This document shows, one piece after another, positions 1-25,956 of a stretch of 63,304 nucleotides of DNA. A program made the translations under genes and the position numbers. The notes below the pieces were generated by a model. The model was not told where the DNA came from and made no database searches. It saw nothing but the letters and a program-made list of their open reading frames with translations. The stretch comes from a virus. Its lineage: Duplodnaviria; Caudoviricetes. Position 1 is the first letter of the stretch. Each line of letters opens with the position of its first letter. The stretch is taken from IMG/VR virus record IMGVR_UViG_3300035126_000079, positions 1 through 63,304 of that record, one strand, 5' to 3'.

Positions 1-129
1 CCCTACCAGAACAACTGTCCCGCCATCAAGAGGCTTGGGGCAATGACAACTCCCGTGCTCGTGGTGTGTATTTTGAGAACACAGCTACCGGTGAAAAGAT
101 TATCTACGTGCGCGGTTCTAGCGCGGGTG
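1..129. repeat. Terminal direct repeat, left copy (circular assembly overlap)
   Basis: 4-129 is identical to 63179-63304 (126 bp). Position 3 (C) versus 63178 (T) is a synonymous CTA/TTA Leu difference. Confidence 0.95.
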
Positions 130-3100
130 ACTTCCAAGGTATCAATAACACCACAGTACTGCATGAGTTACTGCATGCTGCAACGCAACAAAAACTTGAG
201 CTAGCTCTTCTTGCGGTTCAACGTGGGTTCTCAGGTGACGCTAAGTTAACTCGTGCGTACAACAAACTCCTTGACGTGATGAACAACGCAAAGGATGAGT
301 ACAACCGACTGTCTAACTTGGGCGAACTGCCCACGGATATTTACTATCTGAAGACTGTGTCTGGTGTGTTTAGCAACCCGCACGAGTTTGTTTCTTACGG
401 CATGACCGACCCCTATTTTCAAAAGTTCCTGATGGGCGCTTATGGCTTTGAGGAAGACACAGGTCTGTTCAACCAATTTGTAGACGCAATCCGTGAACTG
501 CTTGGCATGGGGCTTGACTCCATCAATGCTCTGTCTGACTTAATTCTTGTTACGGATGAAATCTTGACGGCTAAGCTGACGCCGACAATGAAGATGATTG
601 TTAAGGCTGACAAAGCCAACGCAGTCCGTGAAGGTCGTGGCGAGAAAGTTTCTGCGTCTAAAGCTAAAGCTAAGGCCAACGCCAACGCTAAAAAGATTAC
701 CGCTGCTGAGAAAAAAATCCTGCGCAGCAAAGAAGCGCAAGATGTAGTCGACGGCATTGACACAATGGTTAAGCTACGCGACCCGCAGATTTTCTTGGAC
801 ACTCTTGCGTCTATGTGGTACGGGCTAAACGTAACAAAACTAAAAGCGTTGATGCCTTCTATTCAAACCAACATATTGGCTGAGTGGGGCACTAATCTTG
901 GCATTAAACACATGGACAAAACATGGCGTGCAATGGAAGATATGAGTGCTATGCGCATGAAGATGCTTGGTGGTGCTTCAGATGTAGTAAACAAATGGCT
1001 TAATGTACAACCCGGTTTGTACGGCAAACTTATTAAAGGCAAGAAGAATGAACTTGCTGAATTATCTGCTGTGATGCACTACGCCACGGACAAGAGCATT
1101 GACCCTGCTACAAACAAGAAAGACGCTACACTTAACAAGATGTGGGATGGCCTGAGCGATACAGCCAAAGAAATCTACGTTGATGTGCGCGACTACTATA
1201 AATCTAACTTTGACTTGTACCGCTTGTTGCTCAATGCCCGCATAGATGCAATGAAGATCCCCGGTGATGCCGCTGACCCTGATACACCCAAGGGCAAGCT
1301 AATGGCTGAGATTAAGAAGATGTACGAGACGGCTAAGGGTCTATCTCCATACTTCCCATTGATGCGTTACGGTGACTACTGGTTGCGTGTTGGCTCTGGC
1401 AAAAAGAAAGAGTTCTACATGTTTGAGAGCGTAGCCGACCGTGAATTGTTTATGCGTCAGCGTGTTCGTGACTTACAAAAAGAAGGTGACACCCGCAGTC
1501 TGTCTGAGATGAAGGCCGATGAGGATATTGAAACCGGCAACGACTTAAAAGGTTTGCGCGATAAAAGTACGACTAACGACACTGCGCCTTTACTAAAACA
1601 AATCTTTGAGTTGATTGGTGACGGCATGAGTGAAGTCGATGCCGAGGCGCTTAAGGATCAAATCTATCAGTTGTACTTGACTACGATGCCGGAGCAGAGT
1701 TTCCGTCGTCAGTTTATCCATCGTAAAGGCACTGCTGGTTTCTCGGGTGACGCACTGCGCAACTTTATTACGTCTTCCACCAATATGGCCAACCAACTTT
1801 CGCGGTTAAAGTACGGCCCAGTAATGCTTCGTGAAGTTGATGCTGCCAAAGAAAGTCTCAAGGGCAACCCTGATAAAGATAAATTGGAGATGCTGGTCAA
1901 CGAGTTAGGTGAGCGTGTTCAGTTGGATGTTTACCCACCTGCGGTAGATTCTTTTGCGCAAGGTGCGGCTAACGTTGCTAACAAAACAGCGTTCCTGTAC
2001 TTTATGACTTCTGTGAAGACTGCTGTTGTTCAGTTTTCTTCGTTGCCTATTTTTGGCGCACCTGTCCTTATGTCTCGCCACAGTCCCGCCGGTGTAGTTG
2101 CTGAGATGGGCAAAATGATGTTGGTCTTCAACGACGTCGGCGTTATTGATAAAGATGGAAAACTCAGTCAAGTGTCCTTGGCAAACTCCCGTCGCGTTAA
2201 GATGAATGAGGAAGAGCAACGGGCTATTGAAGCAATGACAGACCGTGGTGTCAGTGAGATCACGATGGCCTATGATTTGATGGATCGCCGCAAGACTCCG
2301 TCAACTAAATACTCTGGTGCGTGGAAGACTGCAACTAACATGATGGGTGGCTTGTTCCACCACGTTGAGCGTTTGAACCGTGAAGTCATGTTTATGACCT
2401 CGTTCCGTTTGAGCCGTAAGCCCGGGCCAAATCAACTATCTTTTGATGACGCGGTCGAACAAGCGGTTAAGGATACTTACGATGCTCTTGGTAACTTCTC
2501 TGAGCAAAACCGTCCACGCATGATGCGCGGCCCAGCCGGTCGTACGCTATTGCAATTTAAGACTTTCCCTCTTTTCGTAACTACATACCTAACCCGTAAT
2601 GGCTATCGTGCTATGGCTGGTATGGATGCGGCGGCTAAGAAAGAAGCGGCTACTCAATTGTTTGGCACTTTGTTTATGTCTGGCTTGTTAGCTGGCTACG
2701 TTGGTGTCCCGGGTATCAGTGCGGCTATGGGTGCTATCCAAGGCATTATCAATTCAATGCGCGATGAAGATGATGAAGACCCGTTAGAAGAGCGCGACCT
2801 TGAGTTCTGGTTCCGCAGTGTGTTTATTCCTGAGTTCTTTGGTGAAGCTCAGATTGGTGGAAACAAAATCAGTGACATCATTGACTCCGGTTTGATTGAC
2901 ACTATCTCGGGCTACAACATGTCTAATAGCTTGTCGATGAATAACATGTGGTTCCCAGACTTAAAAGAGCAACGCACTCTTGAAGACACAGTGCGGGAAT
3001 ACGCATTGTCGTTGGCAGGGCCGTTTGCTAGTTTGACATTAAATCAAATACCTTCAGCTATCCGGCTACTGCAAGAGGGTAAAACCATGCAAGGCTTGGA

Positions 3101-3587
3101 AAGACTTCTCCCCGCCGCTTTGCGTCAGCCGTTGACTGCGGTTCGGTATAGCGAAGAAGGTGCTACAACAAGTACAGGCGCGGTTATTAGAGAGCCTGAA
3201 GAGTTTACAAAGGCGCAACTACTTGCTCAAGCAGCCGGTGCACGGACTACAGGTTTGGCCTCTGCGCAAGAAGCTAACTTCAAAGCCAACGCACTTAAAG
3301 CTAAAGTGATAATTGAAAAAGGCAAGCTCGTTAATCGTGTTGACCTAGAAGCTACACGAGGCGATGACGAAGCCTTTGATGACGCACTGGAAAAACTAAT
3401 CGCGTTTGGTGCGCGTAACCCACAAGCTAGGATTGATGGTGCAGATTTGAGCAAGTTAGTTCAAGCGCGTATATCTAAGCGTGCTAAGGCCGATCGTGGG
3501 TTTGATGTGGACAAGAAGTTCTACCCATACTTGGAACAGTTGCTTGAATCCTCTCGTGAGAAGCTCGAAAGAGAAGCGGCGAAATAA
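3..3587 (+). CDS. C-terminal part of a giant polyvalent virion/ejection protein (zincin metallopeptidase + PLxRFG domain); begins at 60478
   Basis: In frame with the ORF from 60478 across the repeat. VLHELLH zincin motif at 162-176 with downstream HEFVSYGMTDP; YFPLMRYGDY (PLxRFG-type) at ~1356. Confidence 0.8.
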   Translation, partial: LPEQLSRHQEAWGNDNSRARGVYFENTATGEKIIYVRGSSAGDFQGINNTTVLHELLHAATQQKLELALLAVQRGFSGDAKLTRAYNKLLDVMNNAKDEYNRLSNLGELPTDIYYLKTVSGVFSNPHEFVSYGMTDPYFQKFLMGAYGFEEDTGLFNQFVDAIRELLGMGLDSINALSDLILVTDEILTAKLTPTMKMIVKADKANAVREGRGEKVSASKAKAKANANAKKITAAEKKILRSKEAQDVVDGIDTMVKLRDPQIFLDTLASMWYGLNVTKLKALMPSIQTNILAEWGTNLGIKHMDKTWRAMEDMSAMRMKMLGGASDVVNKWLNVQPGLYGKLIKGKKNELAELSAVMHYATDKSIDPATNKKDATLNKMWDGLSDTAKEIYVDVRDYYKSNFDLYRLLLNARIDAMKIPGDAADPDTPKGKLMAEIKKMYETAKGLSPYFPLMRYGDYWLRVGSGKKKEFYMFESVADRELFMRQRVRDLQKEGDTRSLSEMKADEDIETGNDLKGLRDKSTTNDTAPLLKQIFELIGDGMSEVDAEALKDQIYQLYLTTMPEQSFRRQFIHRKGTAGFSGDALRNFITSSTNMANQLSRLKYGPVMLREVDAAKESLKGNPDKDKLEMLVNELGERVQLDVYPPAVDSFAQGAANVANKTAFLYFMTSVKTAVVQFSSLPIFGAPVLMSRHSPAGVVAEMGKMMLVFNDVGVIDKDGKLSQVSLANSRRVKMNEEEQRAIEAMTDRGVSEITMAYDLMDRRKTPSTKYSGAWKTATNMMGGLFHHVERLNREVMFMTSFRLSRKPGPNQLSFDDAVEQAVKDTYDALGNFSEQNRPRMMRGPAGRTLLQFKTFPLFVTTYLTRNGYRAMAGMDAAAKKEAATQLFGTLFMSGLLAGYVGVPGISAAMGAIQGIINSMRDEDDEDPLEERDLEFWFRSVFIPEFFGEAQIGGNKISDIIDSGLIDTISGYNMSNSLSMNNMWFPDLKEQRTLEDTVREYALSLAGPFASLTLNQIPSAIRLLQEGKTMQGLERLLPAALRQPLTAVRYSEEGATTSTGAVIREPEEFTKAQLLAQAAGARTTGLASAQEANFKANALKAKVIIEKGKLVNRVDLEATRGDDEAFDDALEKLIAFGARNPQARIDGADLSKLVQARISKRAKADRGFDVDKKFYPYLEQLLESSREKLEREAAK

Positions 3588-7862: not shown

Positions 7863-8285
7863 TCAGCTTTCTTTAGAACGTCTAACTACCACGGTGTATT
7901 CACTTTCGACATTTAGCCCCTTGGGGTAAAGGTCTGGATTCTCAGCAAGAAAGTCTTTCATGTTTGTTTGATGAAGTCTTTTCTCTAACAGGCCAAATGC
8001 TCCGGTCTCTTCAATAAAACCGTAGATTGAATCCCAATCGTTTGTCCAATACCGTGACTTAATTGAACGCATGATCGTGCCATGTGGGGTGCGAATGCTG
8101 TCGGCATTCATGTCTTTGCATACGTCGAGCATTTCTTGTGCTAACACTTTCATCTGCTCTTCGAGGTCTTGATCTTCGGCTTCAAACACTTTTTTGTTCG
8201 CCGCCCGCTTGTCGCGTATCTTGATATAGATTGAGGTCAATCTGTCCAAGTCTACGGAGGTGACTTTGTCTTCAACTTCTTCCAT
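7863..8285 (-). CDS. Conserved phage replication-module protein (coiled-coil N-terminus)
   Basis: 140-aa ORF with RBS AGGAGA; first gene after the 8434 promoter. Confidence 0.75.
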   Translation of the reverse strand: MEEVEDKVTSVDLDRLTSIYIKIRDKRAANKKVFEAEDQDLEEQMKVLAQEMLDVCKDMNADSIRTPHGTIMRSIKSRYWTNDWDSIYGFIEETGAFGLLEKRLHQTNMKDFLAENPDLYPKGLNVESEYTVVVRRSKES

Positions 8286-8306
8286 CTGATTCTCCTAATA
8301 GTTAAA

Positions 8307-8401
8307 TGTGTTGCAATGACAGTTCACATAAAGCAGTGTGATTGTTTCAAAACATTTACAGTCAGCAACGGCGCTAACCCGTTGCCCATCATTGCAACAC
8401 A
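8307..8401 (-). ncRNA. Candidate structured RNA leader (3-way junction)
   Basis: Perfect 13-bp closing stem 8307-8319/8389-8401 enclosing the GCAACGG/CCGTTGC hairpin and a TCACA/TGTGA hairpin; starts at the predicted TSS. Confidence 0.65.
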
Positions 8402-8406
8402 ACTCT

Positions 8407-8434
8407 AATGTAACACAACATTTGACATTGTCAA
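8407..8434 (-). promoter_or_regulatory. Sigma70-type promoter, 16-bp spacer class
   Basis: TTGACA-16-TACATT with extended TG; the -35 is part of the palindrome TTGACAATGTCAA. Confidence 0.65.
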
Positions 8435-9816
8435 GAGACGTTTAAAAATTCTTCTCTGTACAAATCAATTATTTTGTTATGGTTCGCTACGTTGTTACGC
8501 AACAAAGCATATAAACGCTTCTCCGTTGGGCTTCCGTGTATGTGTACGATAGTCATTGGATTGCGTTGGCCGGGCCTGTCGATGCGTGCGTTTGCTTGCA
8601 GATACGTTTCGACACTGGAGGTGGGAGCGTACCAAATAACAGTGTTAGCCGCAGTCAGTGTTAACCCGTGTGATGCCGCTTGCGGTTGAATAACAAGCAC
8701 TTTAGGGTTATCCCGTGTCTGAAATTCTTTAACAATCTCTGCGCGTCTGTTAGCAGACACAGCCCCGTTAATGACATCGCATGTAATGCCATTCTTAATT
8801 AAGTATTTGGTTAACAACTCAATCGTGTGCGTGAACGGAACAAATACGAGCACCTTGTGGCTTGACTCGTCAATCACTTCCTTAATTACTTTGAGGCGAT
8901 CAGATACATCAAACTCAATCACTTCGCCTGTGTCTGAATACACTGCACCGCCTGAGATTTGCAAGAGCTTGTTGAGCTTTACTGCGGCGTTGATAGCCGT
9001 AATCTCTTCTCCTGCTGCCTCAATTAACATCTGCTTCTTGAGTATGTTGTAGTACTTCATCTGCTGTGGCGAGAGTGGAGCCTCTCTGTCGACTGCTGTA
9101 ACCTCGGGCAAGTCAAGGCAGTCGGCTTTCTCAAACCGAATGGCAGGCTGAAGTATGTTGTGTACAGTTGCTTCCGCAGTGGGCTTAGGTATCCAACGAT
9201 AGTCACTGATCTTGTGCATGACTGAATCGCGGAACTGACCAAAGAAAGGTGATACACCCTTGGGGTTCACGAGCTTTGCCAATCCGTAAGCATCCACAGG
9301 CGACTGAGCCGCTGGCGTACCCGTCAACATCCACAGACCCTTAACCACTTTGGTAATGTCCCGCATGGTTCTCCATCTGTCGGTCTGTGCGTTCTTGTAC
9401 GCAGACGCTTCATCAATCACGATGAGATCAAACCCACCCGCCATGATTTCTTTCTTGACGATCTCAACGCCGTCAAAGTTAATAATGACAAACTCGGCAA
9501 GGCCGTTAATGATTTCTTTGCGCTTCTCTCTTCCACCGTGGGCTACAGCTACTGTGCGATGCAGAGCAAACTTAAAGAGATCTTCTTGCCATGCGGCCTT
9601 CATCACTGACAGTGGGCAGACAATAAGCACTCGGCTAATTACTCCAACTTTCATCAAATAATCCACCGCCCAAATCACTGATGCGGTCTTGCCTGTGCCC
9701 TGCTCATTAAAGCAAAAGCTCTTGCGGTTGCCGATTAAAAATTCGGCGGTGGTCTTCTGATGATCGAACGGGGTGAAGCCGTGTGGTCGCGGCCAGTCAT
9801 ACTCTGATAGTTTCAT
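8431..9816 (-). CDS. SNF2-family (SF2) helicase
   Basis: EQGTGKT, IVIDEAS, LTGTP, HGLTLT and QANARIDRPGQ motifs. Confidence 0.92.
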   Translation of the reverse strand: MKLSEYDWPRPHGFTPFDHQKTTAEFLIGNRKSFCFNEQGTGKTASVIWAVDYLMKVGVISRVLIVCPLSVMKAAWQEDLFKFALHRTVAVAHGGREKRKEIINGLAEFVIINFDGVEIVKKEIMAGGFDLIVIDEASAYKNAQTDRWRTMRDITKVVKGLWMLTGTPAAQSPVDAYGLAKLVNPKGVSPFFGQFRDSVMHKISDYRWIPKPTAEATVHNILQPAIRFEKADCLDLPEVTAVDREAPLSPQQMKYYNILKKQMLIEAAGEEITAINAAVKLNKLLQISGGAVYSDTGEVIEFDVSDRLKVIKEVIDESSHKVLVFVPFTHTIELLTKYLIKNGITCDVINGAVSANRRAEIVKEFQTRDNPKVLVIQPQAASHGLTLTAANTVIWYAPTSSVETYLQANARIDRPGQRNPMTIVHIHGSPTEKRLYALLRNNVANHNKIIDLYREEFLNVS

Positions 9817-10127
9817 TTCTTCTTACGTTCCTTGGCGCTTGTCTCAGTCACCAACTTGTGTTGTGAGTTACGCTTGAACGAGCGGTTGGCCGTTGGGGAT
9901 TGCACCTTCGTGCCATCTTTGTTAGAACCACCCTTGCTCAGCGCCTTGACGTGGGCAATGTCCTTGCCTTCCCTAGAATCAGCTGTGCCATCCTTGTTCT
10001 TATCAGGATTCTTTTTGTCGTACTCATTACGGGCACGCTGACGCTCCATCCGGTCAGGCAACTCGCCACGCTTGACTTGCTGTTCGTATTCCTTTTTATA
10101 AGGTCGGGGTTTGTTTACGTAAGGCAT
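9813..10127 (-). CDS. Small HNH-like endonuclease
   Basis: GKDIAHVKALSKGGSN...NRSF HNH-like signature. Confidence 0.7.
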   Translation of the reverse strand: MPYVNKPRPYKKEYEQQVKRGELPDRMERQRARNEYDKKNPDKNKDGTADSREGKDIAHVKALSKGGSNKDGTKVQSPTANRSFKRNSQHKLVTETSAKERKKK

Positions 10128-10129
10128 AT

Positions 10130-10795
10130 CTATCCTTTGTTGTATTCACATTGTTTAACTGAACACCACTTACACAGTGGCCCTGTCTTGGGGTTCCACA
10201 CCCCGCTCATGAATGCACCTTCAAGCCGCTCAATGTCGGGCAGTACTTTTTGTACATACACAGACTTCATTTTCGCACTATGTTCTGCTTTTACAAACTC
10301 TTTACTGACTACGAACATAAGCGCGGACTTGACCCGCTCGATCTCGGGGTACTTGGCAAACAGGGCGGCGGCAATCAGATCAAGCTGACCCATATCAGCG
10401 TAGCGTGCGTTCTTACTTGTCTTGTAGTCGACCGAGTAGGCCAGCTTCTTCTCGCGGTCTAAGATAACCAAGTCGGCAATCCCATGCCACCACACGCCTT
10501 CGGCTGAGAACTCGCAGGGCTGTAGGTCTTTGGTTAGTCCTAGTTTTACCTCGCAATGCTTCTCCCCGGGGATGGCGTTTAGTCTATCTAGAGAAGACTT
10601 AATGTATGCAAACTTCTCAGGTATCGGCTTGCTATCTCGAATGTATTCCTCGGCAACCGTGTGCATCTCTTTGCCGTACAGCGTAGCGGTTGTATCTCCC
10701 TCGATTACATCCTTGGCAACCTTGGTGTGGTAGTACTTCTTAGGGCACTGCTGAAAGGTCTTAAGACTGCTGAATGACCAAATTAACTGTTTCAT
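10130..10795 (-). CDS. Cas4-like PD-(D/E)xK exonuclease
   Basis: WSFSSLK, QCPKK, GIADL, DYKT and C-terminal CKWC..C (four Cys, Fe-S type). Start moved to 10795 (ATGA overlap with the upstream gene). Confidence 0.85.
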   Translation of the reverse strand: MKQLIWSFSSLKTFQQCPKKYYHTKVAKDVIEGDTTATLYGKEMHTVAEEYIRDSKPIPEKFAYIKSSLDRLNAIPGEKHCEVKLGLTKDLQPCEFSAEGVWWHGIADLVILDREKKLAYSVDYKTSKNARYADMGQLDLIAAALFAKYPEIERVKSALMFVVSKEFVKAEHSAKMKSVYVQKVLPDIERLEGAFMSGVWNPKTGPLCKWCSVKQCEYNKG

Positions 10796-11544
10796 AAGTC
10801 TTCCTTTGTGTACTTCTTCCAAATCTCTTTTGCATCCATATCCCAAATGTCGGCTACCAATTCCTTTAGCTCTTGGTACATATCGGGCTTCTCTGTCTTC
10901 AAATTCTCTACCCATGGCGCATCTTGGAGTGCGGGTCTAAGCTCCCACCATAATTTGCGCTTCTTGGGCGTCAAGAAAGTTCCGCTAGTAAAAGCCCGCT
11001 CCTGTATTCCTTTTTCTATTTCTTTTTCTCGCTCTTCTCTAGCTTCTTTCCATCTTTTTTGTATGCTACGAAGTTCTTTTTTCTTATCTTCTGTTGTCTT
11101 ATAGTAGTCTTCAGGCATCCATATTTGTCTTAGTATCTCGCTACGCTCCGGCTTCTTCATTTTGCGTAATGCTTTAGCTTCAATTTGCCTAATACGTTCC
11201 CTTGTTACAAACAACGCCTTCCCAATTTCTTCTAAAGTGTAGTCAGCATCCAATTCAATTCCAAACCGCATACGTAATACTTTGGATTCCCTTGGCGTAA
11301 GAGTGTCTAACATTTCTTTAACATGCTCGGCTAACTGCGCCTTGCATAGCTCTTCATCAGGGTCAATAGTTGGTTCTTCCTCGTATGGTAAGCATGGGAA
11401 CTCAGGCAACATTGAATCTTCTTTGTACCCAAATAAGTAATACGTTTCGCGCAGTTCTTTGCTAGTACCTACCATCGTGCCATAGGGTATGGTCTGCCCT
11501 TTGTTTATTTTGCCGTACGGCCTGTTAGCTTTAGCAAGCGCCAT
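10792..11544 (-). CDS. Protein containing an RpoD-like sigma70 region 4 only
   Basis: LTPRESKVLRMRFGI...YTLEEIG...VTRERIRQIEAKALRKM; no region 2 visible; start codon uncertain. Confidence 0.85.
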   Translation of the reverse strand: MALAKANRPYGKINKGQTIPYGTMVGTSKELRETYYLFGYKEDSMLPEFPCLPYEEEPTIDPDEELCKAQLAEHVKEMLDTLTPRESKVLRMRFGIELDADYTLEEIGKALFVTRERIRQIEAKALRKMKKPERSEILRQIWMPEDYYKTTEDKKKELRSIQKRWKEAREEREKEIEKGIQERAFTSGTFLTPKKRKLWWELRPALQDAPWVENLKTEKPDMYQELKELVADIWDMDAKEIWKKYTKEDL

Positions 11545-13348
11545 AGCTCTGTCCGTACCCTGATTCGCAGTTAAGCGGTAAATCCTTCGCCCACTTGGGG
11601 CGCATACGCATACACATCTCTACGTATTCTTGTGCAGTCTTAGCCTCGGCTTTCGGCGCTATGCAAGCAATCGCATCATGCACAGTCATCACAACCTTGT
11701 ACTTCTTAGCGATCATTAGCATCTGCTCACCAATCACGATACGAGCTAGAGCTTGGCATACGTTCTCAATCACCTTGCCGCCATAGATTCGGTTGGGGAT
11801 GGTGGCTTTGCCTCGCTTGGTGTCGTACACCATCTCAGCTTTGCCTTCCTCACTCTGAAGCATGCGCAAGTTCGGATAACGCAGGTACAAACCATTGGGT
11901 AGAAGGATGCCGTTGTTTCCCTCGATCTTCAGTATCCCATCCCTACCCAATCCCATTGCGCTATTACGCAGTATGGCTTCAAGGGCTAGGCCCGCTTTCT
12001 TCCAAAGTGCAGTAATTTTCGGATACGTAGTGCGGTAAGTGTCGATAATGCGTTTTGCTTCTTCCAATGTAATCTCCACGTTAAAGTTCTTGAGTTGCGC
12101 TTGGAACTTTGCCGCCCCCATCCCGTACCCACAACCAAGGATAGTGGTCTTACCAACGAATCTCTCGTCTTTCGTAATCTCTGAGACGCTCTTGCCATAG
12201 ATAGCAGATGCCATGATTTTGTATACATCCTCGCCCCGATCAAATGCGTCTACCAAGTCGTCTTGTTCCGCAAGCCATGCTAGCGTACGGGCTTCAATCT
12301 GTGATGAGTCTGAGTCGATCATCACGTACCCTGTTGGCGCAAAAATGGCGTGTTTCAGGGGGGAGTTGCGTGGGATGTTTTGTAGGTTGAGCTTGTCATC
12401 ACCGCCCCACCGCCCTGTGTGGGCGGCATAGTATCGCAAGGGAACTGGCATAAGTCCACGTTTGGCAATCCCAATAAACCTTTCGGTTCGCGTCTCCTCG
12501 ATGGTCGACTTCGTGCCAAGGCGTGCGGCTACTAGGGCTTGTACTGCGGGGTTCTTATGCTCAAGCAATGCTTTAAACTCTTCGTCAGTTTTAGAGAAGG
12601 CGTAAGTCTCTCTGCCTGTGGTTAGGCTAATCTTCATTGGCGGTAAAGCACCAGCGGCTTGCAACATAATCGCAAACTTTTGGTTGCTCATCAAGTCGCC
12701 CTTTTCGTAAGCACCTAGCGCCATCGCCTTTAAATCCTGTACTGAATCTAAGTGGTCACCGAGCACTTGCAAGTCCAGCGCCAAAGACGGTTCTGTAAAC
12801 ATGCGTATGGTTAAGTCAATTAGCCGCAGCTCTATCTGTGGAAACCCTGCGCTCATATTGCCAAACAACTGCCATGTCAGGGCTACATCGTTCATGCAGT
12901 ATTCGCCATACCTTAGTAACTGCTCAGGGGGAAAGTCGATCCGTCTAAGGCCAAGGGCGTTCTCAACTTCCGTGCCCTTCTCACCTATGCCGTAGTACTG
13001 CGCTAGCACCTTGAGACTGCCCCCTACGTTAGTGCCATGCAAGGCTCTGCCCATGGAGAGTGTGTCCAACCAACCCTTTGGTTTGATGTTGAAGTGCCAA
13101 CTCAGGATTGCCCCATCGAATATGGCGTTGTGCGCTAGCGCCAATGAATTTGCCCAATCGAATTGTTTAAGGTACTCGGCAGTCTGAACCATCGTTCCGC
13201 TGAACCATTCTGGCTCACCATCATCTACCTGCACTGATACCCCTACGACATGGAACTGCGGGTCACGGATGTACTCTTCGGTAGTCTGCTTGGCAAACCC
13301 AACCTCGCGTGAGTAGAACGTCTCAAAGTCAACTGTTATTATTTTCAT
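11531..13348 (-). CDS. polA: Family A DNA polymerase with 3'-5' exonuclease domain
   Basis: VDFET, AHNAIFD, TGRWGG..NLQNIP, DSSQIEAR, KTTILGCGYG and TVHD motifs. Confidence 0.95.
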   Translation of the reverse strand: MKIITVDFETFYSREVGFAKQTTEEYIRDPQFHVVGVSVQVDDGEPEWFSGTMVQTAEYLKQFDWANSLALAHNAIFDGAILSWHFNIKPKGWLDTLSMGRALHGTNVGGSLKVLAQYYGIGEKGTEVENALGLRRIDFPPEQLLRYGEYCMNDVALTWQLFGNMSAGFPQIELRLIDLTIRMFTEPSLALDLQVLGDHLDSVQDLKAMALGAYEKGDLMSNQKFAIMLQAAGALPPMKISLTTGRETYAFSKTDEEFKALLEHKNPAVQALVAARLGTKSTIEETRTERFIGIAKRGLMPVPLRYYAAHTGRWGGDDKLNLQNIPRNSPLKHAIFAPTGYVMIDSDSSQIEARTLAWLAEQDDLVDAFDRGEDVYKIMASAIYGKSVSEITKDERFVGKTTILGCGYGMGAAKFQAQLKNFNVEITLEEAKRIIDTYRTTYPKITALWKKAGLALEAILRNSAMGLGRDGILKIEGNNGILLPNGLYLRYPNLRMLQSEEGKAEMVYDTKRGKATIPNRIYGGKVIENVCQALARIVIGEQMLMIAKKYKVVMTVHDAIACIAPKAEAKTAQEYVEMCMRMRPKWAKDLPLNCESGYGQSYGAC

Positions 13349-13656
13349 TTCTTAATTTCCAAGTTCATACAGTCTTCAATCACACGCTCTAGGTACGCAA
13401 AATTGTCTTCGCGGATAATCATGGGATGCCCACCGCTACGCTGAATGTGGTCGAGGGCTTTGAGTTGGAGGGCTGTTGCCGCGCCCCTGCCTGCCTTTGC
13501 TTCGATAGCTACAAAGTGGCCGTTAATGCAACAGAGAAAGTCAGGAGTGCCACTGCTTCCATAGCCAGTACCGATGGGCATGGCATAGTAGATGTCGTGG
13601 GCTTTGAGGATTGCCTTGATCTTGGCTTTGACCTTGGCTTCAGGGGTTTGCGACAT
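13345..13656 (-). CDS. VRR-NUC domain nuclease / resolvase
   Basis: PEAKVK...GTPD...IEAK...LQ pattern. The protein as given (MSQTPE) reads from ATG 13656. Confidence 0.85.
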   Translation of the reverse strand: MSQTPEAKVKAKIKAILKAHDIYYAMPIGTGYGSSGTPDFLCCINGHFVAIEAKAGRGAATALQLKALDHIQRSGGHPMIIREDNFAYLERVIEDCMNLEIKK

Positions 13657-14077
13657 AAGACCTCTGATATGAAGCGTAGTTGTCCCAATATGCTTTGTCG
13701 AGAACTACATTTTTAACGCTACCAATTGCTACCATAGTGGTATCGCGGTCAATGATAGCGCCTTCCCTACTCCATATAATCTTAGGTACTGTATGCTCAC
13801 CCTTAAGGAATTTTATGCCGTCTTCTGTGATGCGGTACATACCTGATCTGCGCTCGCCATGCTCGGCTAACCCAAACCATACCAATACACTGCAATGGGC
13901 TTGCGCTCTGTAAGGGGCTCGGCTTGATTGCCCATTAACAATCGCGCCCCTTCCGGCTTCTACAAAAACCCAATCGTTTGCTCTACCAAGCATCGCAAGC
14001 ATGTCGACTTTATGCTTGCACATCCGATGTGGATTCATCTTTCTGATTTTCTGTTTGCACTGTGGGCAATGTTCCAT
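13640..14077 (-). CDS. Hypothetical protein (CxxC + possible winged helix)
   Basis: CPQC at the N-terminus; GMYRITEDGIKFL wing-like motif; RBS GGAGA. Confidence 0.65.
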   Translation of the reverse strand: MEHCPQCKQKIRKMNPHRMCKHKVDMLAMLGRANDWVFVEAGRGAIVNGQSSRAPYRAQAHCSVLVWFGLAEHGERRSGMYRITEDGIKFLKGEHTVPKIIWSREGAIIDRDTTMVAIGSVKNVVLDKAYWDNYASYQRSYVANP

Positions 14078-14103
14078 CTAATTCTCCAGTTGTTTATGGA
14101 GTC

Positions 14104-14131
14104 AATATAGCACATCGCTTTACTTTGTCAA
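14104..14131 (-). promoter_or_regulatory. Sigma70-type promoter, 16-bp spacer class
   Basis: TTGACA-16-TATATT with extended TG, just downstream of a terminator. Confidence 0.7.
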
Positions 14132-14143
14132 TAGTACAGACGT

Positions 14144-14166
14144 AAAAAAGCCGCCCGTAGGCGGCT
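14144..14166 (-). terminator. Intrinsic terminator ending the early operon
   Basis: AGCCGCC-TACG-GGCGGCT followed by a T-run on the minus strand. Confidence 0.85.
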
Positions 14167-14195
14167 AGGATATACCCTAACATTGTTAGGTCGTT

Positions 14196-14705
14196 TTACT
14201 TCAGCATTGTGATCTCACGAGTCAGATACCACTGGGCTTTGCGCAAGTCTTCGAGCTTGTTGCCTTTGTGGTCGGCACGAGTCAGATACTTAATCACGTT
14301 GCCAATGTTGTAGTTGAGCTTCTTCGCTTCGATGAAGTCGATGGTCTCGATTCCACCTACTTTGTAATGCTCAGGGTGATCTACTGCATCAAACATTTCA
14401 ATCTGCATGGGTGTGTTGGATGTAGTAATGGACACAGTTTTCCAATCGGCTATTGTCTCATCCATTATCTGCTTGTGCTTTGCCATTGCTTCTTTGGCTT
14501 TGGGCGTATCCATTAGCTCTCTTAGCGTAAGCGTCTCACGCTTCTTCTTTACTACTTTGGCTTTCTTCTTCGCGTTCCACAGCACTGTGTATACGTACTG
14601 AAGTGCAACACCGATAGCATCTGCTACCTCCTGTGGTTTGGCCTTTGGGTTAGCGGCTACGTAGCTACGCACTTGTGCGGCTTTGGTTACTTTTTTGATT
14701 GTCAT
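14196..14705 (-). CDS. DUF3310 (T7 gp1.7-like nucleotide kinase family) protein with an N-terminal HTH-like extension
   Basis: VDHPEHY..GGIETID...GNVIKY..R..HK...EDLRKAQWYL; N-terminal PQEVADAIGVALQYVYTV. Confidence 0.85.
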   Translation of the reverse strand: MTIKKVTKAAQVRSYVAANPKAKPQEVADAIGVALQYVYTVLWNAKKKAKVVKKKRETLTLRELMDTPKAKEAMAKHKQIMDETIADWKTVSITTSNTPMQIEMFDAVDHPEHYKVGGIETIDFIEAKKLNYNIGNVIKYLTRADHKGNKLEDLRKAQWYLTREITMLK

Positions 14706-14908
14706 GGTTTATTTCCTGTTTGGTTGTTAACGTACTCGGTAAGAACTTCTCTCATCTTGGCTTGCTTTGACATTCGATGGTTGGTGTCGAAATAATCCAT
14801 CACCTCTCTCGGCAGTCGCAAGCTCGTGCAAGCTAATGCGGGTTTCTTACCAAGCCCCCGCCCCTTGCGTTTCTTCTCTAACTTTAAATACTCAATTCCT
14901 GTGGTCAT
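14702..14908 (-). CDS. Ribbon-helix-helix protein, BrnA-antitoxin-like
   Basis: RG.GKKP...SLRLPREVMDYF...QAKMREVL resembles the BrnA C-terminal RHH. Confidence 0.6.
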   Translation of the reverse strand: MTTGIEYLKLEKKRKGRGLGKKPALACTSLRLPREVMDYFDTNHRMSKQAKMREVLTEYVNNQTGNKP

Positions 14909-15228
14909 TTGTTTCCTTTCGCTCTGTCCATAACTCTTTCCATTGCATCCGAGTAGCTCATACCCAATGCTTTATCTATCAAAGCCAAAGACTCATCAAT
15001 GATTTTGTCGTACACCCCTGCTTCGGCTTCTCTAATTGCAGTTAGCGTGAACTTTGCATCTTCCAATGCTTCAATGTCGGCGCTGTTGACTTGCCACATC
15101 AGCTCAATGTCGGCTTCGATAGTGTCAAAGTAGGGCTTAATTGGTTTTAGCGGTTTTATCCTATCAAACATTTTCTGTCCAAGTTCGTAGAACTCTTTGT
15201 CTTTTCCTGTGCTGTTATCAATAGTCAA
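14905..15228 (-). CDS. Hypothetical protein
   Basis: ATGA-coupled ORF within the early operon. Confidence 0.7.
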   Translation of the reverse strand: MTIDNSTGKDKEFYELGQKMFDRIKPLKPIKPYFDTIEADIELMWQVNSADIEALEDAKFTLTAIREAEAGVYDKIIDESLALIDKALGMSYSDAMERVMDRAKGNK

Positions 15229-15240
15229 AATGGTGCCTCT

Positions 15241-15498
15241 TCATGTTGTGGTTTCTCTGGTTTGGGGAATCGCTTGGGGTCTAGCCGTGTGAACGGCCAC
15301 CACGCCCGTAGCTCCTCCTGACTTAGCACTTTGCCTTTCGACATCGGCTTCGTAGTATCTTGTTGGGTACTTTGCTTTTTTCTTGACATATTTTCGTAGC
15401 CAGTCGGCTCCACCTAATTCTTTAAACTGAAGCCACTCGACGTCACTTAAACGTACGTATCGTGCCTTTAGGAGGGCGGGGGGCTTTGGTCTTGGCAT
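15241..15498 (-). CDS. Small RHH-like protein
   Basis: MPRPKPP...RYVRLSD.EW..FKELGGADWLR; RBS AAGGAG. Confidence 0.6.
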   Translation of the reverse strand: MPRPKPPALLKARYVRLSDVEWLQFKELGGADWLRKYVKKKAKYPTRYYEADVERQSAKSGGATGVVAVHTARPQAIPQTRETTT

Positions 15499-15694
15499 GC
15501 TCTAGTACTCCTTCGTGCTTATTCGGTTGCCTTTGCTTGGCTCGGGTGAACGAACCAAATTGTTTGTACCCAAGGTCTTCCTCGCTCTTGATCTGATTGC
15601 TCGGGTTCTTAGCTCTGAAGTATTGGTCTTTCAAAAAGATACTAGGGCGATCTACCTGCGCTAGCTCCTCCCAAGGGTTCAGTACTTTGGTCAT
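15443..15694 (-). CDS. Hypothetical protein
   Basis: ATGA-coupled to the upstream ORF. Confidence 0.6.
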   Translation of the reverse strand: MTKVLNPWEELAQVDRPSIFLKDQYFRAKNPSNQIKSEEDLGYKQFGSFTRAKQRQPNKHEGVLEHAKTKAPRPPKGTIRTFK

Positions 15695-16020
15695 CGCTTA
15701 TCCCCAAACATATGCCCGACACTGCTTTCGTAAGCCACGGGCTTTTGCCCCCTCAGTTTGGCGATCTGCTCGTCCCACTTTAATCCGTTCATGTGCTTCC
15801 ATCCTTCTAACTTATCAGCTAAAAACTTCTCGTTGCCTTTGAACAAGCGCGTGTTAAGCGCCATGCTTGCAATAACTTCCATATCCACAGCGTGCTTGCG
15901 CACTTCTTCAGCGTTGCGGCGCACTCCACCCACGGCGGACATAATGATTGACTGCAACATCACAGGGTCTTGGGCACGGCGTGCTACCTCGGACAAAAAC
16001 TTCATCTCATCTTCATTCAT
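15691..16020 (-). CDS. Hypothetical protein
   Basis: ATGA-coupled; RBS AGGAG. Confidence 0.7.
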   Translation of the reverse strand: MNEDEMKFLSEVARRAQDPVMLQSIIMSAVGGVRRNAEEVRKHAVDMEVIASMALNTRLFKGNEKFLADKLEGWKHMNGLKWDEQIAKLRGQKPVAYESSVGHMFGDKR

Positions 16021-16265
16021 GTCAATACTCCTAACTGTCTAAGTGCTACTTTCAAACCTTCCACACCACCGACTCGCTGATCGTTGATGAATATTTGTGG
16101 CATCTGCCTAGCGTCAGGGAATTCCTTGAGTAAGTTACCCATGCGCTCACCCACCATAATGTCTACGTCCGCATACTTAAGCCCTGCGGCATTCAGTATT
16201 TGCTTCGCTGTCACGCAGTTTGGGCAGTTATCCTTTGTGTACATCGTTATGTTGACGTTGTTCAT
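16017..16265 (-). CDS. Glutaredoxin
   Basis: YTKDNCPNC, MPQIFI and VGG motifs; start trimmed to 16265. Confidence 0.9.
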   Translation of the reverse strand: MNNVNITMYTKDNCPNCVTAKQILNAAGLKYADVDIMVGERMGNLLKEFPDARQMPQIFINDQRVGGVEGLKVALRQLGVLT

Positions 16266-16473
16266 GTCCGATCTTCCTTTCTTGGTAGGTAAAAACAAAT
16301 TGGCACTTCTTGCATTGCTTCTGTTGCACGTAGGCATGCTCATCTGGGTACGAACACCATTCACTGAAGTCATGTTGGCAGTCACCAAAAAAGTGGTCAA
16401 ACAACCAAACAAACCCCGCGATACCGGCAATAAGTACCGGCCCTAAAAGCATGAGCCAAAGATCATTCATCAT
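16228..16473 (-). CDS. Small membrane-anchored protein with a Cys/His motif
   Basis: N-terminal hydrophobic segment; CQHDF...QCKKC. Confidence 0.6.
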   Translation of the reverse strand: MMNDLWLMLLGPVLIAGIAGFVWLFDHFFGDCQHDFSEWCSYPDEHAYVQQKQCKKCQFVFTYQERKIGHEQRQHNDVHKG

Positions 16474-16627
16474 CGTCGCCCTCCACGTTTTCTTGTATCA
16501 GTTGTTGCTTAACAAGCTCAAGAACGCCTATAACTGTGGACATGTAAAGCGTTTCGTCGTACTTGCGAACTACTGCAATAAGCTCATCAGCCAACCCACC
16601 CGCTAATTTTCCTTGGTTCAGTATCAT
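16463..16627 (-). CDS. Hypothetical protein
   Basis: MILNQGK... start, ATGA-coupled to the upstream gene. Confidence 0.6.
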   Translation of the reverse strand: MILNQGKLAGGLADELIAVVRKYDETLYMSTVIGVLELVKQQLIQENVEGDDDE

Positions 16628-16896
16628 TTCAGCCCCTTCAAAAGCAGTAACATTGTTATGGCGTCGGGCAATGACTCCTCCTCGCGTACTAGGTACAGCT
16701 CGGTAAGCCAATCGCTTCGGTTTTGATTCTTGCTCGGCTGATACGTGCGTAGTGTTAGCACCCGCCCATTGAGGGCGTTCGTGATTGAAATACTTGTTTG
16801 GTCACTCGGAGAGCTATCCACCTCATGCACTCTTGCCCCCACCAACTTCACACCCTCGTCCATCAACCAATTTCTAATCCATCTTTTAATACTCAT
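16624..16896 (-). CDS. Hypothetical protein
   Basis: ATGA-coupled; RBS GGAGG. Confidence 0.7.
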   Translation of the reverse strand: MSIKRWIRNWLMDEGVKLVGARVHEVDSSPSDQTSISITNALNGRVLTLRTYQPSKNQNRSDWLTELYLVREEESLPDAITMLLLLKGLK

Positions 16897-17075
16897 TTTT
16901 CCTCCAATACTTCTAAGATTACTTTCTTAATCCTGCCGTACGCATCTGCTTTGGTATACGGAGCGGCAAGAATGATGTCGATTTCGCACAGGGCGTCGTA
17001 GTACTGCGTGCCCTTCAATGCGTGCTCTAGTTTGTATTCGTCTTGTGGGTACTCAAATTCAAGTACGGCTTTCAT
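16893..17075 (-). CDS. Hypothetical protein
   Basis: MKAVLEFEYP..., a type of small ORF common in phages. Confidence 0.7.
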   Translation of the reverse strand: MKAVLEFEYPQDEYKLEHALKGTQYYDALCEIDIILAAPYTKADAYGRIKKVILEVLEEK

Positions 17076-17226
17076 ACGCGGCCCCCTTCGTCAAGCGAAT
17101 GAGTAGTCGCGCCTTACGCCATGTTCTGCGCACATCTGTTGATGCGGCATCGACCCATTTGAATTTGGGGTGATTGTGATCTCGCAAGGGAATCACTTTG
17201 GATTGGTATTTGATTTCATGTTGCAT
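17059..17226 (-). CDS. Small hypothetical protein (55 aa, below the ORF-track cutoff)
   Basis: Translated by hand: MQHEIKYQ...HPKFKWVDAASTDVRRTWRK...; its RBS AGGAG overlaps a palindrome copy. Confidence 0.65.
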   Translation of the reverse strand: MQHEIKYQSKVIPLRDHNHPKFKWVDAASTDVRRTWRKARLLIRLTKGAAYESRT

Positions 17227-17255
17227 CTAAATTCTCCTAACATTGTTAGCCTGTT

Positions 17256-18143
17256 TTATGCCAGTTCCCGCGCCGCGCTGAGTAAAACAAACACCTCAGC
17301 AGTGGCTCGACAACCGACACCCTCAATCATTTGCTCAGGCTCTACTAGCTTGAGCATCCCTAACTTACCTCTCATATCTACGGGGAGCGTATTATCATCG
17401 TAAAGCTGTACTTCGTCACCTGTTTTAACTACGTACTTTCCATTAGACAATAAGACTAGACTAGTATCCTTACCGGATTTGAACTTGGTCTCTATGTCTT
17501 CGACAGTCAGCATCTCAAGTCCTGTCGCACGCAGTTGGGATAACAATGTTAGTTGCCCGTTACCCATTGCATACTGTTTGAACTCGTCGGCCTTCACATC
17601 GAGCACAAAGTTTTTCATAAGTGGCATTAGTTTGTGCATGTTGTTTGCATAGTCCCCACGCTTACGCCCTGCCTGTCTGCTGATAGCACGAGCGGCTTCT
17701 CCCAACGCATCATTCATACGCTCAGTCATGCTCTTGGGATTAAAGGTTTTCTTGATAGCGGCTAGGGCTTTCTTAGCATCCTTAGTCCGATACGCGCCCA
17801 CACGCTCACGCTCACTACGAATAGTGTTGCTAGTGATAGAGAACACATACCCACCTTGGTCGTAACGATAGTCGCGGTCGATAGCACCTACCACTTCTCC
17901 ATCTTTGCATACTACGAACTTAGTAACTGTGATCCGCGCCTTCTCATCCGCAGTTGCACTCTTGATCTGTCCGTAATACTCAGGCACTCGGAACTCCCAC
18001 GTTGGGTTCTCGGTGATGACCTTCCACATGATCTCATTCAATGGCTTCTCCACCACGAAATCAAAGTCGCTCTTACGTTTACCCTGCAACGTCTTGTCGC
18101 TAATGATGACGTTACTCAATGTCATTGCTGTGCTTGCATCCAT
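17256..18143 (-). CDS. Hypothetical protein
   Basis: 295-aa ORF with RBS AAGGAG. Confidence 0.8.
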   Translation of the reverse strand: MDASTAMTLSNVIISDKTLQGKRKSDFDFVVEKPLNEIMWKVITENPTWEFRVPEYYGQIKSATADEKARITVTKFVVCKDGEVVGAIDRDYRYDQGGYVFSITSNTIRSERERVGAYRTKDAKKALAAIKKTFNPKSMTERMNDALGEAARAISRQAGRKRGDYANNMHKLMPLMKNFVLDVKADEFKQYAMGNGQLTLLSQLRATGLEMLTVEDIETKFKSGKDTSLVLLSNGKYVVKTGDEVQLYDDNTLPVDMRGKLGMLKLVEPEQMIEGVGCRATAEVFVLLSAARELA

Positions 18144-18153
18144 GATCTACTCC

Positions 18154-19002
18154 TTACCATTCAAATTTCTTAATGATTGCATCTACCTTAGCCTTGACCT
18201 CGGTGCGATGTTGTTCGCTATCCTTGATTGCCTCTATGTCAGTACCTAACATTGTTAGCTCTAATTCCTTGCGTGCTTCCTCCAACTTGGGGTCGTTGGT
18301 GATGTTCATCTTAGTAAGCAAAGCACAAAGCTCTAGCGGGTTGCTCACCAATGTGTCGTGGTAACGCTTCTTACCACCCGATGTGTCGTCGAGTTTCTTA
18401 GACATGCCTACTAGCATTTCATGTAACCGCTCCCATGGCTCACGCATAGCGTCAGCTAGCTTGTTGTCTTGTTGTGCGCTGAACTCTGCTTGCATCTCGG
18501 CTAAGTCATTCGCAGGTATATCTAAGCGAAAATCACCCGCCTCGGGTACAGGCTTGACTGTTCTACGAAACCCAAACTTCAGCTTCACTTCTTCAAGCTC
18601 GGGATAGTCCTCGGCTCTGTACATCTTGCCTAGGTGCGTAGGTGCATCCTTCACTAGCTCAGGGTATGCGTGAAAGAATGAGCCGCACATGGCATTGAAC
18701 GTCTGCTCGTATGCGTTCATGGTCTGTTTGTATTCCATAAACAAGGCAGTCGGCAACATACGCTCGCCCTTGTCTGCCCATGGTAGCGTTCGCTGATTGT
18801 GATAGAGACGAACCTTGGCGGCAAAGTTCTCGATCTCCTTACGCAAGTTAGTACCTGCGAATAGGTTCTTGTGGACACGCGCTGCGTCTACGACTGCTGA
18901 TGCGTCAGTATTCACTTGCGCCGTTGTATCGCGGTCTAGCTTTGATGCAGGCCACACGCTGATGTTCAATTCCACTAACACTGCTGATGAACTAATACTC
19001 AT
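18154..19002 (-). CDS. DUF3150-like protein associated with the AAA/vWA cluster
   Basis: LVELNISVW...K.D, RTLPW, YP...V..KF pattern; neighbours the MoxR/vWA genes. Confidence 0.55.
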   Translation of the reverse strand: MSISSSAVLVELNISVWPASKLDRDTTAQVNTDASAVVDAARVHKNLFAGTNLRKEIENFAAKVRLYHNQRTLPWADKGERMLPTALFMEYKQTMNAYEQTFNAMCGSFFHAYPELVKDAPTHLGKMYRAEDYPELEEVKLKFGFRRTVKPVPEAGDFRLDIPANDLAEMQAEFSAQQDNKLADAMREPWERLHEMLVGMSKKLDDTSGGKKRYHDTLVSNPLELCALLTKMNITNDPKLEEARKELELTMLGTDIEAIKDSEQHRTEVKAKVDAIIKKFEW

Positions 19003-19196
19003 TTCTTATCTCCATATACGTTGTTTGCGATTGTGGCAAAGCGGTTAATTGCTTCGAACTTGGATACTTTGTTGGTCTTAAATGTATAAGCCAAGGTCAT
19101 AGCTAAGATAACCATGCCCTCGCCATTAGAAACTTCTTGCTCAGCGAACCGCTTAACGATTCGTATACCTTCGTTCTTCATTTCTTCAGGTGTCAT
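18999..19196 (-). CDS. Hypothetical protein
   Basis: Tightly packed ORF. Confidence 0.65.
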   Translation of the reverse strand: MTPEEMKNEGIRIVKRFAEQEVSNGEGMVILAMTLAYTFKTNKVSKFEAINRFATIANNVYGDKK

Positions 19197-19197
19197 T

Positions 19198-19449
19198 TCA
19201 TTTCTCCTGTGGTTTACCGGCTAATCTAGCCATTTGATATTTACTGTCACCTATGATCTGCATACTGAAGTTGGCTTCGTTCGGGTACACATGGTAGGTG
19301 TACGTTTCAGTCATGCCCAACTCTTTGCGCTTGTCCTCACTCCACCATTTCTCTTCGTACACTTCTGCACTCTCTAAGACTTCCACTAACTGCATGGCTT
19401 TCTCTTTGGGCATGATGTACTTCTTGTATCCAATATCTACTACTACCAT
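19198..19449 (-). CDS. Hypothetical protein
   Basis: Start MVVVDIG follows RBS GGAGG. Confidence 0.7.
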   Translation of the reverse strand: MVVVDIGYKKYIMPKEKAMQLVEVLESAEVYEEKWWSEDKRKELGMTETYTYHVYPNEANFSMQIIGDSKYQMARLAGKPQEK

Positions 19450-19459
19450 ACTGCCTCCC

Positions 19460-22265: not shown

Positions 22266-22294
22266 ATTATACCACATTGTTATAGCAATGTCAA
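22266..22294 (-). promoter_or_regulatory. Consensus sigma70 early promoter
   Basis: TTGACA-17-TATAAT with extended TG; the spacer holds a degenerate palindrome site (TAACAATGTGG). Confidence 0.9.
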
Positions 22295-24675: not shown

Positions 24676-24704
24676 ATTATACCACATTGTTATGTCAAAG
24701 TCAA
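24676..24704 (-). promoter_or_regulatory. Sigma70 early promoter (near copy of the 22266 promoter)
   Basis: TTGACT-17-TATAAT; shares ATAACAATGTGGTATAATATAAG with the 22266 promoter. Confidence 0.88.
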
Positions 24705-25927: not shown

Positions 25928-25956
25928 ATTATACCACAAAAAAGTGGCAATATCAA
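25928..25956 (-). promoter_or_regulatory. Sigma70 early promoter
   Basis: TTGATA-17-TATAAT with extended TG; palindrome copy ~20 bp upstream at 25977. Confidence 0.85.

Follow-up and report, generated by a model that had tools for sequence, protein, structure and literature searches.

T4 AsiA, gp39 of Thermus phage P23-45, P7 of Xanthomonas phage Xp10 and ORF67 (gp67) of Staphylococcus phage G1 bind sigma region 4 or the flap of RNA polymerase, and all are unrelated to sigma factors. T4 gp33, as described in PMC2988020, binds the flap tip, is regarded there as a mimic of sigma region 4, has a C-terminal tail for binding of a partner, and is linked to the replication phase. In Bacillus subtilis, a protein bearing sigma region 4 (SigO) is separate from the one bearing region 2 (RsoA), according to PMC8103513. 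In this study, a gene of an uncultured water phage was analyzed at positions 10792..11544 on the minus strand of IMG/VR record IMGVR_UViG_3300035126_000079 (the whole stretch of 63,304 nucleotides (nt), hereafter the window). The 250-residue product contains a homologue of the C-terminal part of a primary sigma factor, without the promoter-melting half, and joins it to further conserved modules; the gene is optional in its phage group. Our tentative reading is that this module may act on host RNA polymerase at the flap and at -35 boxes.

In contrast to AsiA, gp39, P7 and gp67, the protein is itself a homologue of region 4. It resembles gp33 in being a small phage protein for which we propose a seat on the beta-flap tip, where region 4 would otherwise lie, and in having a C-terminal extension that may hold a putative partner. 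However, gp33 is not a reader of DNA sequence and acts together with gp55 and the sliding clamp, whereas the present protein keeps the residues that read the -35 element. No gp33-named family occurred among its five PHROG matches, and in this phage we found no gp55-like protein and no clamp; we would regard gp33 as a functional precedent, not as a homologue. SigO differs in needing the adjacent RsoA with its sigma region 2, and no such partner is present or co-inherited in the phage, which therefore does not encode a two-subunit system of the SigO-RsoA type. Compared with RpoD, to which true homology is evident, the protein lacks regions 1.1 to 3.1 (about 500 residues) and has a new N-terminus of 37 residues and 110 extra C-terminal residues, besides being phage-encoded and optional. 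Among short proteins of uncultured phages annotated in BFVD/UniProt as Sigma70_r4 domain containing, the best viral structure match (136 residues) was 52% identical over 123 columns, but these proteins lack the C-terminal domain; we know of no characterization of them. In full-text literature (main texts), no description of a comparable phage protein was found.

What is probably new here, judging from the sequence, is a factor aimed at the region-4/flap interface of host polymerase and built from sigma itself. The family amounts to a piece of primary sigma fused to an orphan domain that is more constrained than region 4. If it acts on polymerase, nature would here have carried out the experiment of splitting sigma, the family would represent a takeover factor of a new type, and one could learn from it what the sigma finger and region 4 can do when supplied separately; should it prove a DNA-binding regulator and nothing else, it would be a modest case of reuse of a host gene fragment.

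Sigma homology of the protein

A first-pass annotation, made from the letters of the window, had proposed that about 65 residues of the product of 10792..11544 closely resemble region 4 of primary sigma, including the recognition helix TRERIRQIEAKAL. The ORF (open reading frame) has exactly these limits, on the minus strand. The resemblance was borne out by Pfam, in which Sigma70_r4 (PF04545) matched residues 79-131 (E 2.1e-18, 66 bits, gathering cut-off 24.1; 68.8 bits when the record was searched in six frames), and TRERIRQIEAKAL lies at residues 114-126. The proposed length was too short: by BLASTP, the similarity to primary sigma spans about 100 residues (38-139), aligned with residues 513-610 of Salmonella RpoD (51% identity, E 7e-27) and, with the same identity, with residues 525-623 of Acinetobacter RpoD. 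A phmmer search against the PDB aligned residues 67-140 without gaps onto residues 536-609 of E. coli sigma70 (offset 469), with 1tlh_B and 2p7v_B as the best sequence matches and 44 of 66 residues identical to the sigma70 fragment 1tlh_B, as counted in the printed alignment.

The BLASTP alignment also paired FGYKEDSMLPEF of the phage protein with IGDDEDSHLGDF of RpoD, the tip of the sigma finger; residues 513-519 of E. coli sigma70 are assigned to the finger of region 3.2 in PMC6265461. By alignment, the homologous span of about 100 residues comprises the finger tip (region 3.2), the linker between regions 3.2 and 4 (3.2/4 linker), and the entire region 4 to the sigma C-terminus. The best NCBIfam model was the proteobacterial RpoD model PRK05658 (residues 41-140 against model positions 532-627 of 631, E 2.1e-35), whose equivalog cut-off of 555 bits for a full primary sigma is far above the 122.8 bits obtained. 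Lower scores were given by PRK09210 (92.8 bits), PRK07406 (87.1 bits) and PRK05901.1-3 (80.3 bits), which we take to be the Firmicutes, cyanobacterial and actinobacterial RpoD models, respectively.

The best Foldseek matches of the whole model were primary-sigma chains or isolated sigma region 4, and the five matched PHROG families were all sigma or regulator families or unnamed. GerE was the sole other Pfam row at E<=10 (14.9 bits vs the cut-off of 23.5), so the protein is not a LuxR/GerE member by the gathering threshold. In PADLOC, the only match was MzaA, the sigma factor of the MZA defense system (E 3.7e-22); the match covers only the region-4 end of the model at 112.2 bits vs a cut-off of 800, and the protein is not assigned to the MzaA family.

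Sigma70_r2 was found at E<=10 neither in the ORF product nor in any frame of the whole 63-kb record, while the control search gave matches in 11 of 14 named genomes. When the N-terminal part (residues 6-40 and 6-62) and the C-terminal part (residues 191-248 and 143-248) were compared with RpoD regions 2-4 by hhalign, the probability was only 0.1-0.2% (0.15% for the C-terminal domain by itself). The earlier remark that no region 2 is visible thus holds in all three approaches, and the domain scan that had been suggested as a check recovers Sigma70_r4 without Sigma70_r2. Region 4 with its -35 helix-turn-helix (HTH) is therefore present, and the region-2 domain of a sigma factor is not.

The gene is real and not a spurious ORF, since more than 100 full-length homologues exist in metagenomes. 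In a metagenome protein search, the best 120 matches listed all had E<=1e-62 with 42-100% identity, query coverage was at least 92% in 116 of them, and PF04545 was the only Pfam domain on each; the contigs bearing homologues are up to 66 kb long.

Modules and their conservation

The protein was divided into five parts on the basis of a family alignment of 25 members, homology and structure models (all coordinates on the minus strand). The N-terminal part (residues 1-37, 11434..11544) carries the family-specific motif PYG...YY..G, with P20, Y21, G22, E30, Y35 and Y36 invariant among the 25 sequences, and is modeled as mostly disordered. It is followed by the homologue of the finger tip and 3.2/4 linker (residues 38-66, 11347..11433), with G39, Y40, D43, P47, E48, P50, C51 and P53 invariant, and by sigma region 4 (subregions 4.1 and 4.2 plus helix H5 at the C-terminus; residues 67-142, 11119..11346), which contains TRERIRQIEAKAL and is supported by Pfam, phmmer and the model. 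A charged linker (residues 143-190, 10975..11118), modeled as one long helix, differs in length among members and has a far longer insertion in P0119. The remainder (residues 191-250, 10795..10974) is an orphan C-terminal four-helix domain with the pattern W..E..P...D..WV...P.MYQELK..V...W, in which W199, E201, P204, W211, P220, M222, Y223, E225, L226, K227, W234 and W242 are invariant.

Within the sigma-derived part, conservation is not confined to the surface that contacts DNA. In the recognition helix, T114, E116, R117, R119 and Q120, equivalent to sigma70 residues 583, 585, 586, 588 and 589, are invariant or nearly so; residues 584-589 of sigma70 read the -35 bases, on the evidence of the Taq sigma-A/DNA structure and of genetics. 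The 3.2/4 linker is as conserved in the family as this helix. The same holds, invariant or nearly so, for K88, V89, L90, R93, G95 and I96 in the 4.1 segment (sigma70 557-565) and for R134 and L138 in H5 (sigma70 603 and 607). A review (PMC2988021) places flap contacts in or near helices H1, H2 and H5, and describes -35 recognition as requiring contact of region 4 with the flap. At the finger tip, the phage protein has Y-K-E-D vs D-D-E-D in RpoD, so that the invariant Y40 and K41 stand at sigma70 D513 and D514.

The ratio of nonsynonymous to synonymous substitution rates (dN/dS; ratio of sums over 178 pairs among 34 distinct sequences) was 0.27 in the N-terminal part, 0.20 in region 4, 0.29 in the linker and 0.15 in the C-terminal domain. 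With values of 0.15-0.29, all four regions are under purifying selection, and the orphan C-terminal domain, with the lowest value, is the most constrained part of the protein; 14 of its 58 columns are invariant. Both flanks are therefore conserved modules and not junk.

In the AlphaFold2 model of the whole protein (mean predicted local distance difference test score (pLDDT) 70.8; predicted template-modeling score (pTM) 0.39), residues 1-23 and 48-59 are disordered, with pLDDT below 50 for residues 1-23. Helices were predicted for region 4 at residues 62-80, 84-94, 104-111, 115-127 and 132-142, and beyond it as one long helix at 151-187 and four short ones within 193-246. When folded alone, the C-terminal domain reached a pLDDT of 78.6. 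Its fold had no convincing match in the PDB by Foldseek (best E 5.5) and none among 48,161 chains at Z>=5 in a wide search with VIA (best Z 4.4); in a protein atlas, residues 145-250 were without a usable match and the scores for residues 1-62 were all below 0.9. Co-folding of two copies of residues 143-250 gave a score of 0.00 (mark, 0.42), which speaks neither for nor against a homodimer.

A profile of the C-terminal domain was compared with 1.84 billion representative proteins and gave eight matches. The four at E<=1e-10 were, when their sequences were read, two full-length members (257 and 260 residues) and two fragments of about 120 residues; the fifth was a 29-residue fragment (E 2e-9), and the three weakest aligned with the profile over short stretches only, the one that was read (P0127) being repetitive. 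Among these representatives, the C-terminal domain exists only fused to this region 4.

Position and distribution of the gene

In 39 of 46 related viral loci, the gene and that of a family A DNA polymerase (polA) lie on the same fragment, and the other seven fragments lack polA. The position is fixed: in all 39 loci the match to the gene begins at most 126 nt from the end of polA, even where polA is only 57-59% identical. The interval between polA and the downstream exonuclease gene (10795-11531 in the window) varies in length between about 0 and 3 kb in the 106 loci compared, with 86 clusters of small ORFs. Elsewhere this slot holds a 2OG-Fe(II) oxygenase (L064:3814-4401), an 80-residue protein (38 loci), or a 195-247-residue protein (15 loci) without any Pfam family at E<=0.01. 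In one relative (L116:8032-8592, plus strand), the slot before the exonuclease encodes a 186-residue protein with Sigma70_r4 at residues 123-176 (59 bits), an unrelated N-terminal stretch of 110 residues, and no C-terminal domain. Region 4 has thus been taken up on more than one occasion by phages of this group.

Near relatives are 63-67% identical in the gene, as against 81-94% in polA and 96-99% in the exonuclease, so that the gene either evolves faster than its neighbors or moves between lineages. When the 162 ORFs of the window were compared with two complete carriers and three non-carriers, the sigma-module gene alone was present in both carriers and in no non-carrier; no partner gene is therefore co-inherited with it. 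As an accessory gene in a variable slot, it would tune fitness and does not belong to the core transcription program.

Among the viral contigs collected in IMG/VR, the lineage counts at least 593 polA relatives. In a tblastn search of 50,697 phage records, none of the 84 matched records of cultured phages covered 80% or more of the protein; the matches listed were all region-4 stretches, and the annotated ones were rpoD or sigma-factor genes. A megablast search with positions 8000-20000 of the window found nothing. The nearest cultured phages were DSL-LC04 (57%) and the Pelagibacter phages HTVC027P (54%) and HTVC023P (48%) by terminase, and Rhizobium and Pseudomonas phages (34-37%) by polymerase.

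Inference of the host from region 4 was attempted and abandoned. A scan of genome contigs with query-specific peptides gave 11 scattered loci, ten of them matching at least the greater part of region 4 (Saccharimonadota, 56%; Bacilli, 51%; Acidobacteria, 47%; Fibrobacter; and six Prevotella-type metagenome-assembled genomes) and the eleventh, from Polyangiaceae, matching residues 44-97 only. Nothing more can be stated than that the best score came from the proteobacterial-type RpoD model.

Possible modes of action

The 3' third of a proteobacterial-type rpoD, encoding the finger tip, 3.2/4 linker and region 4, would have been captured by a phage and joined to a phage-specific N-terminal motif and, via the charged helix, to the orphan C-terminal domain. 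Produced along with the replication genes, the protein would dock where the C-terminal part of sigma70 sits, namely on the beta-flap tip and in the RNA-exit channel of host RNA polymerase, would also read -35 boxes of the TTGACA type, and would compete with region 4 of host sigma factors. Transcription dependent on the -35 element might then be dampened in the host, or a holoenzyme might be formed that keeps -35 specificity and has an altered sigma finger and an extra C-terminal domain recruiting a partner. We hold such docking on the flap and the -35 boxes, where the protein would vie with host sigma, to be quite possible, and it is the reading that we favor, if tentatively. Action on RNA polymerase is preferred over plain DNA binding or a region-4 decoy because the finger tip and linker were kept and are conserved; as the surfaces for reading DNA and for binding core were retained along with the finger and linker, action at -35 promoters in a polymerase-bound state seems the most likely. 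No RNA polymerase was recognized among the ORFs scanned with PHROGs and Pfam, and the lack of a recognizable polymerase or region 2, together with the TTGACA and TG-extended -10 sites of the early arm, points to host E-sigma70 as the enzyme at stake.

Several points weigh against this reading. A second search, anchored on polA, gave 79 new loci, of which 73 extend for more than 800 nt downstream of polA, and the gene was absent from 69 of these 73; of the four with any match, two were records of the first search, one (L132) had a partial N-terminus at a contig end, and one was the different protein of L116. The gene-less relatives L064 and L065 have polA genes 94% and 87% identical to that of the window, and Sigma70_r4 scored above the cut-off nowhere in three relatives estimated to be 100%, 96% and 92% complete. 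The function is therefore dispensable. The region 4 of sigma70 itself is tethered to polymerase, and a free module would be expected to lose against it if the extra modules brought no additional affinity. Modeling of the N-terminal part was of low confidence, within a whole model of pTM 0.39, and the conserved residues of the recognition helix are equally compatible with a free DNA-binding protein. Promoter-like sites totaled 18, 11 and 8 in three scans, vs 24.4, 21.7 and 20.5 expected from shuffling, so that the totals carry no weight and the best sites are suggestive solely by where they lie and how high they score. Finally, the promoter type is the same in relatives with and without the gene, and no promoter feature follows its presence.

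A bolder version of action on polymerase takes the altered finger into account. According to PMC6265461, neutralization of sigma70 D513-D516 stabilized promoter complexes up to more than 10-fold and lowered sensitivity to DksA/ppGpp. Because Y40 and K41 replace the acidic D513 and D514, a re-tuned holoenzyme is suggested: the phage-supplied C-terminal third would displace the finger and region 4 of sigma70 itself in a domain swap within the holoenzyme, in which -35 specificity is kept, the finger is less acidic, open complexes are more stable and less sensitive to DksA/ppGpp, and the orphan domain recruits a phage or host partner. This version we consider unlikely. If it were true, a real sigma homologue would do the job of T4 gp33, and sigma70 promoters would be kept firing in starved, slow-growing water bacteria.

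The invariant or nearly invariant recognition-helix residues and the perfect or near-perfect TTGACA boxes of the early arm would also suit a free-standing regulator, whose region-4 HTH binds TTGACA-like boxes alone, aided by the other modules, and represses sigma70 promoters of early phage genes or of the host. Many region-4-like and LuxR-type HTH proteins are plain regulators, phrog_36, annotated as transcriptional regulator, was matched with E 7.6e-6, and the weak VIA rows for the C-terminal domain include small HTH domains (Spo0J, Z 4.1; homeodomains, Z 3.4-3.6), although these lie within noise. Such a regulator leaves unexplained the equal conservation of the finger tip, the linker and the core-binding segments in 4.1 and H5; moreover, isolated region 4 is a weak DNA binder, the conserved residues of the C-terminal domain (W, E, P, D, M, Y) have hydrophobic or acidic character, unlike a DNA-binding surface, and a k-mer search of the late-arm intergenic stretches gave no repeated operator-like motif. 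We judge a free regulator to be rather improbable.

The segment with 44/66 identity to E. coli sigma70 is the one crystallized with AsiA and with Rsd (1tlh_B and 2p7v_B), and the protein might instead be a decoy, mimicking host region 4 and titrating an anti-sigma factor of the Rsd type, an AsiA-like factor of a rival phage, a host activator or a defense sensor. An accessory gene in a variable slot that diverges faster than its neighbors is typical of host interaction or counter-defense, and the sole PADLOC match is to a defense-associated sigma. That match is, however, confined to the shared region 4, and no anti-sigma factor or target was identified. A decoy would need neither the -35-reading residues, nor the sigma finger, nor two more conserved modules, one of which, the C-terminal domain, is under the strongest constraint within the protein. 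This explanation appears improbable to a still greater degree than a free regulator.

An aberrant true sigma factor directing late transcription, with a cryptic region-2 function supplied by its C-terminal domain or by another phage protein, might account for the switching on of late genes, which some factor must bring about in a late arm without strong sigma70-like sites, and has parallels in the split sigmas T4 gp55 with gp33 and SigO with RsoA (PMC8103513 and PMC2988020), and the C-terminal domain is rich in conserved aromatics, but such a sigma factor is highly improbable given that no Sigma70_r2 occurs in any frame, that the C-terminal domain gave an hhalign probability of 0.15% with RpoD regions 2-4, and that relatives sharing the same late genes lack the protein, with no co-inherited partner among the 162 ORFs. 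The first-pass proposal that this is not a true sigma factor is supported on the same grounds and by the dispensability of the gene in close relatives. Among its positive options, namely a decoy, a repressor at -35 elements and a factor that appropriates sigma, the homology to finger tip and linker and the accessory status of the gene shift the weights.

Promoter-like sites

The early minus-strand arm contains five sigma70-type promoter-like sites scoring at least 10/12, all on the coding strand in intergenic gaps and all with a TG-extended -10 element: 22266-22294, 25928-25956, 24676-24704, 14104-14131 and 8407-8434 (minus strand; first hexamers starting at 22294, 25956, 24704, 14131 and 8434, respectively). 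The site at 14104..14131 (TTGACA, 16 nt, TG, TATATT; 11/12; a consensus match only) lies in the gap 14078-14195, ahead of the operon that contains the sigma-module gene. Directly upstream of it, at 14149..14166 (minus strand), is a terminator-like hairpin of 7 pairs (6 G-C) followed by a T run. In the late plus-strand arm (26-63 kb), no plus-strand sigma70-like site scored above 9/12. The k-mer search of the eight late-arm plus-strand intergenic stretches, which gave no repeated operator-like motif, yielded weak 9-11-mers in four or five of the eight; these also occur inside genes and were dropped as a shared late-promoter motif.

Neighboring genes and ends of the record

The minus-strand operon has the order orf145, VRR-NUC nuclease, family A DNA polymerase, sigma-module gene, Cas4-like exonuclease, orf104 and SNF2 helicase. 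The upstream neighbor polA (11531..13348, minus strand; phrog_17, E 2.4e-87) overlaps with its stop the start of the sigma-module gene by 14 nt, as read from the junction sequence. The stop of the sigma-module gene in turn overlaps, as ATGA, the true start (MKQLIW) of the Cas4-like exonuclease (10130..10795, minus strand; phrog_69, E 3.1e-21), for which the match begins at residue 44 of the long ORF and homologues begin at MKQLIW. With these two overlaps, the gene does sit inserted in the replication operon, as had been annotated. Programmed fusion to polA was considered and rejected, since in several relatives 99-126 nt separate polA from the conserved start.

Elsewhere in the early arm, 16017-16430 (minus strand) encodes a 137-residue thioredoxin-domain protein and 19460-20635 (minus strand) a 391-residue protein with an HNH-endonuclease PHROG match (E 9e-88). 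Thioredoxin is the polymerase processivity factor in T7, and by analogy the thioredoxin-domain protein could serve the family A polymerase in this way. In the late arm, a tandem 15-nt unit (GGCGGGAGGTTGAGC-like copies on the minus strand) was seen at about 51290-51350, near the start of ORF 51114-56954 (1,946 residues), which had neither a PHROG match nor a Pfam family above cut-off.

The record was estimated by CheckV to be 100% complete. ORF 60478-63303 continues into ORF 3-3587 without a change of frame, and the two together encode a protein of about 2,090 residues of the polyvalent virion type, with an LPD39 domain; a 126-nt exact direct repeat is present at both ends (4-129 = 63179-63304). 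The end repeat and the ORF running in frame across the ends together imply either circular closure or terminal redundancy of the genome, despite the label of the record as linear.

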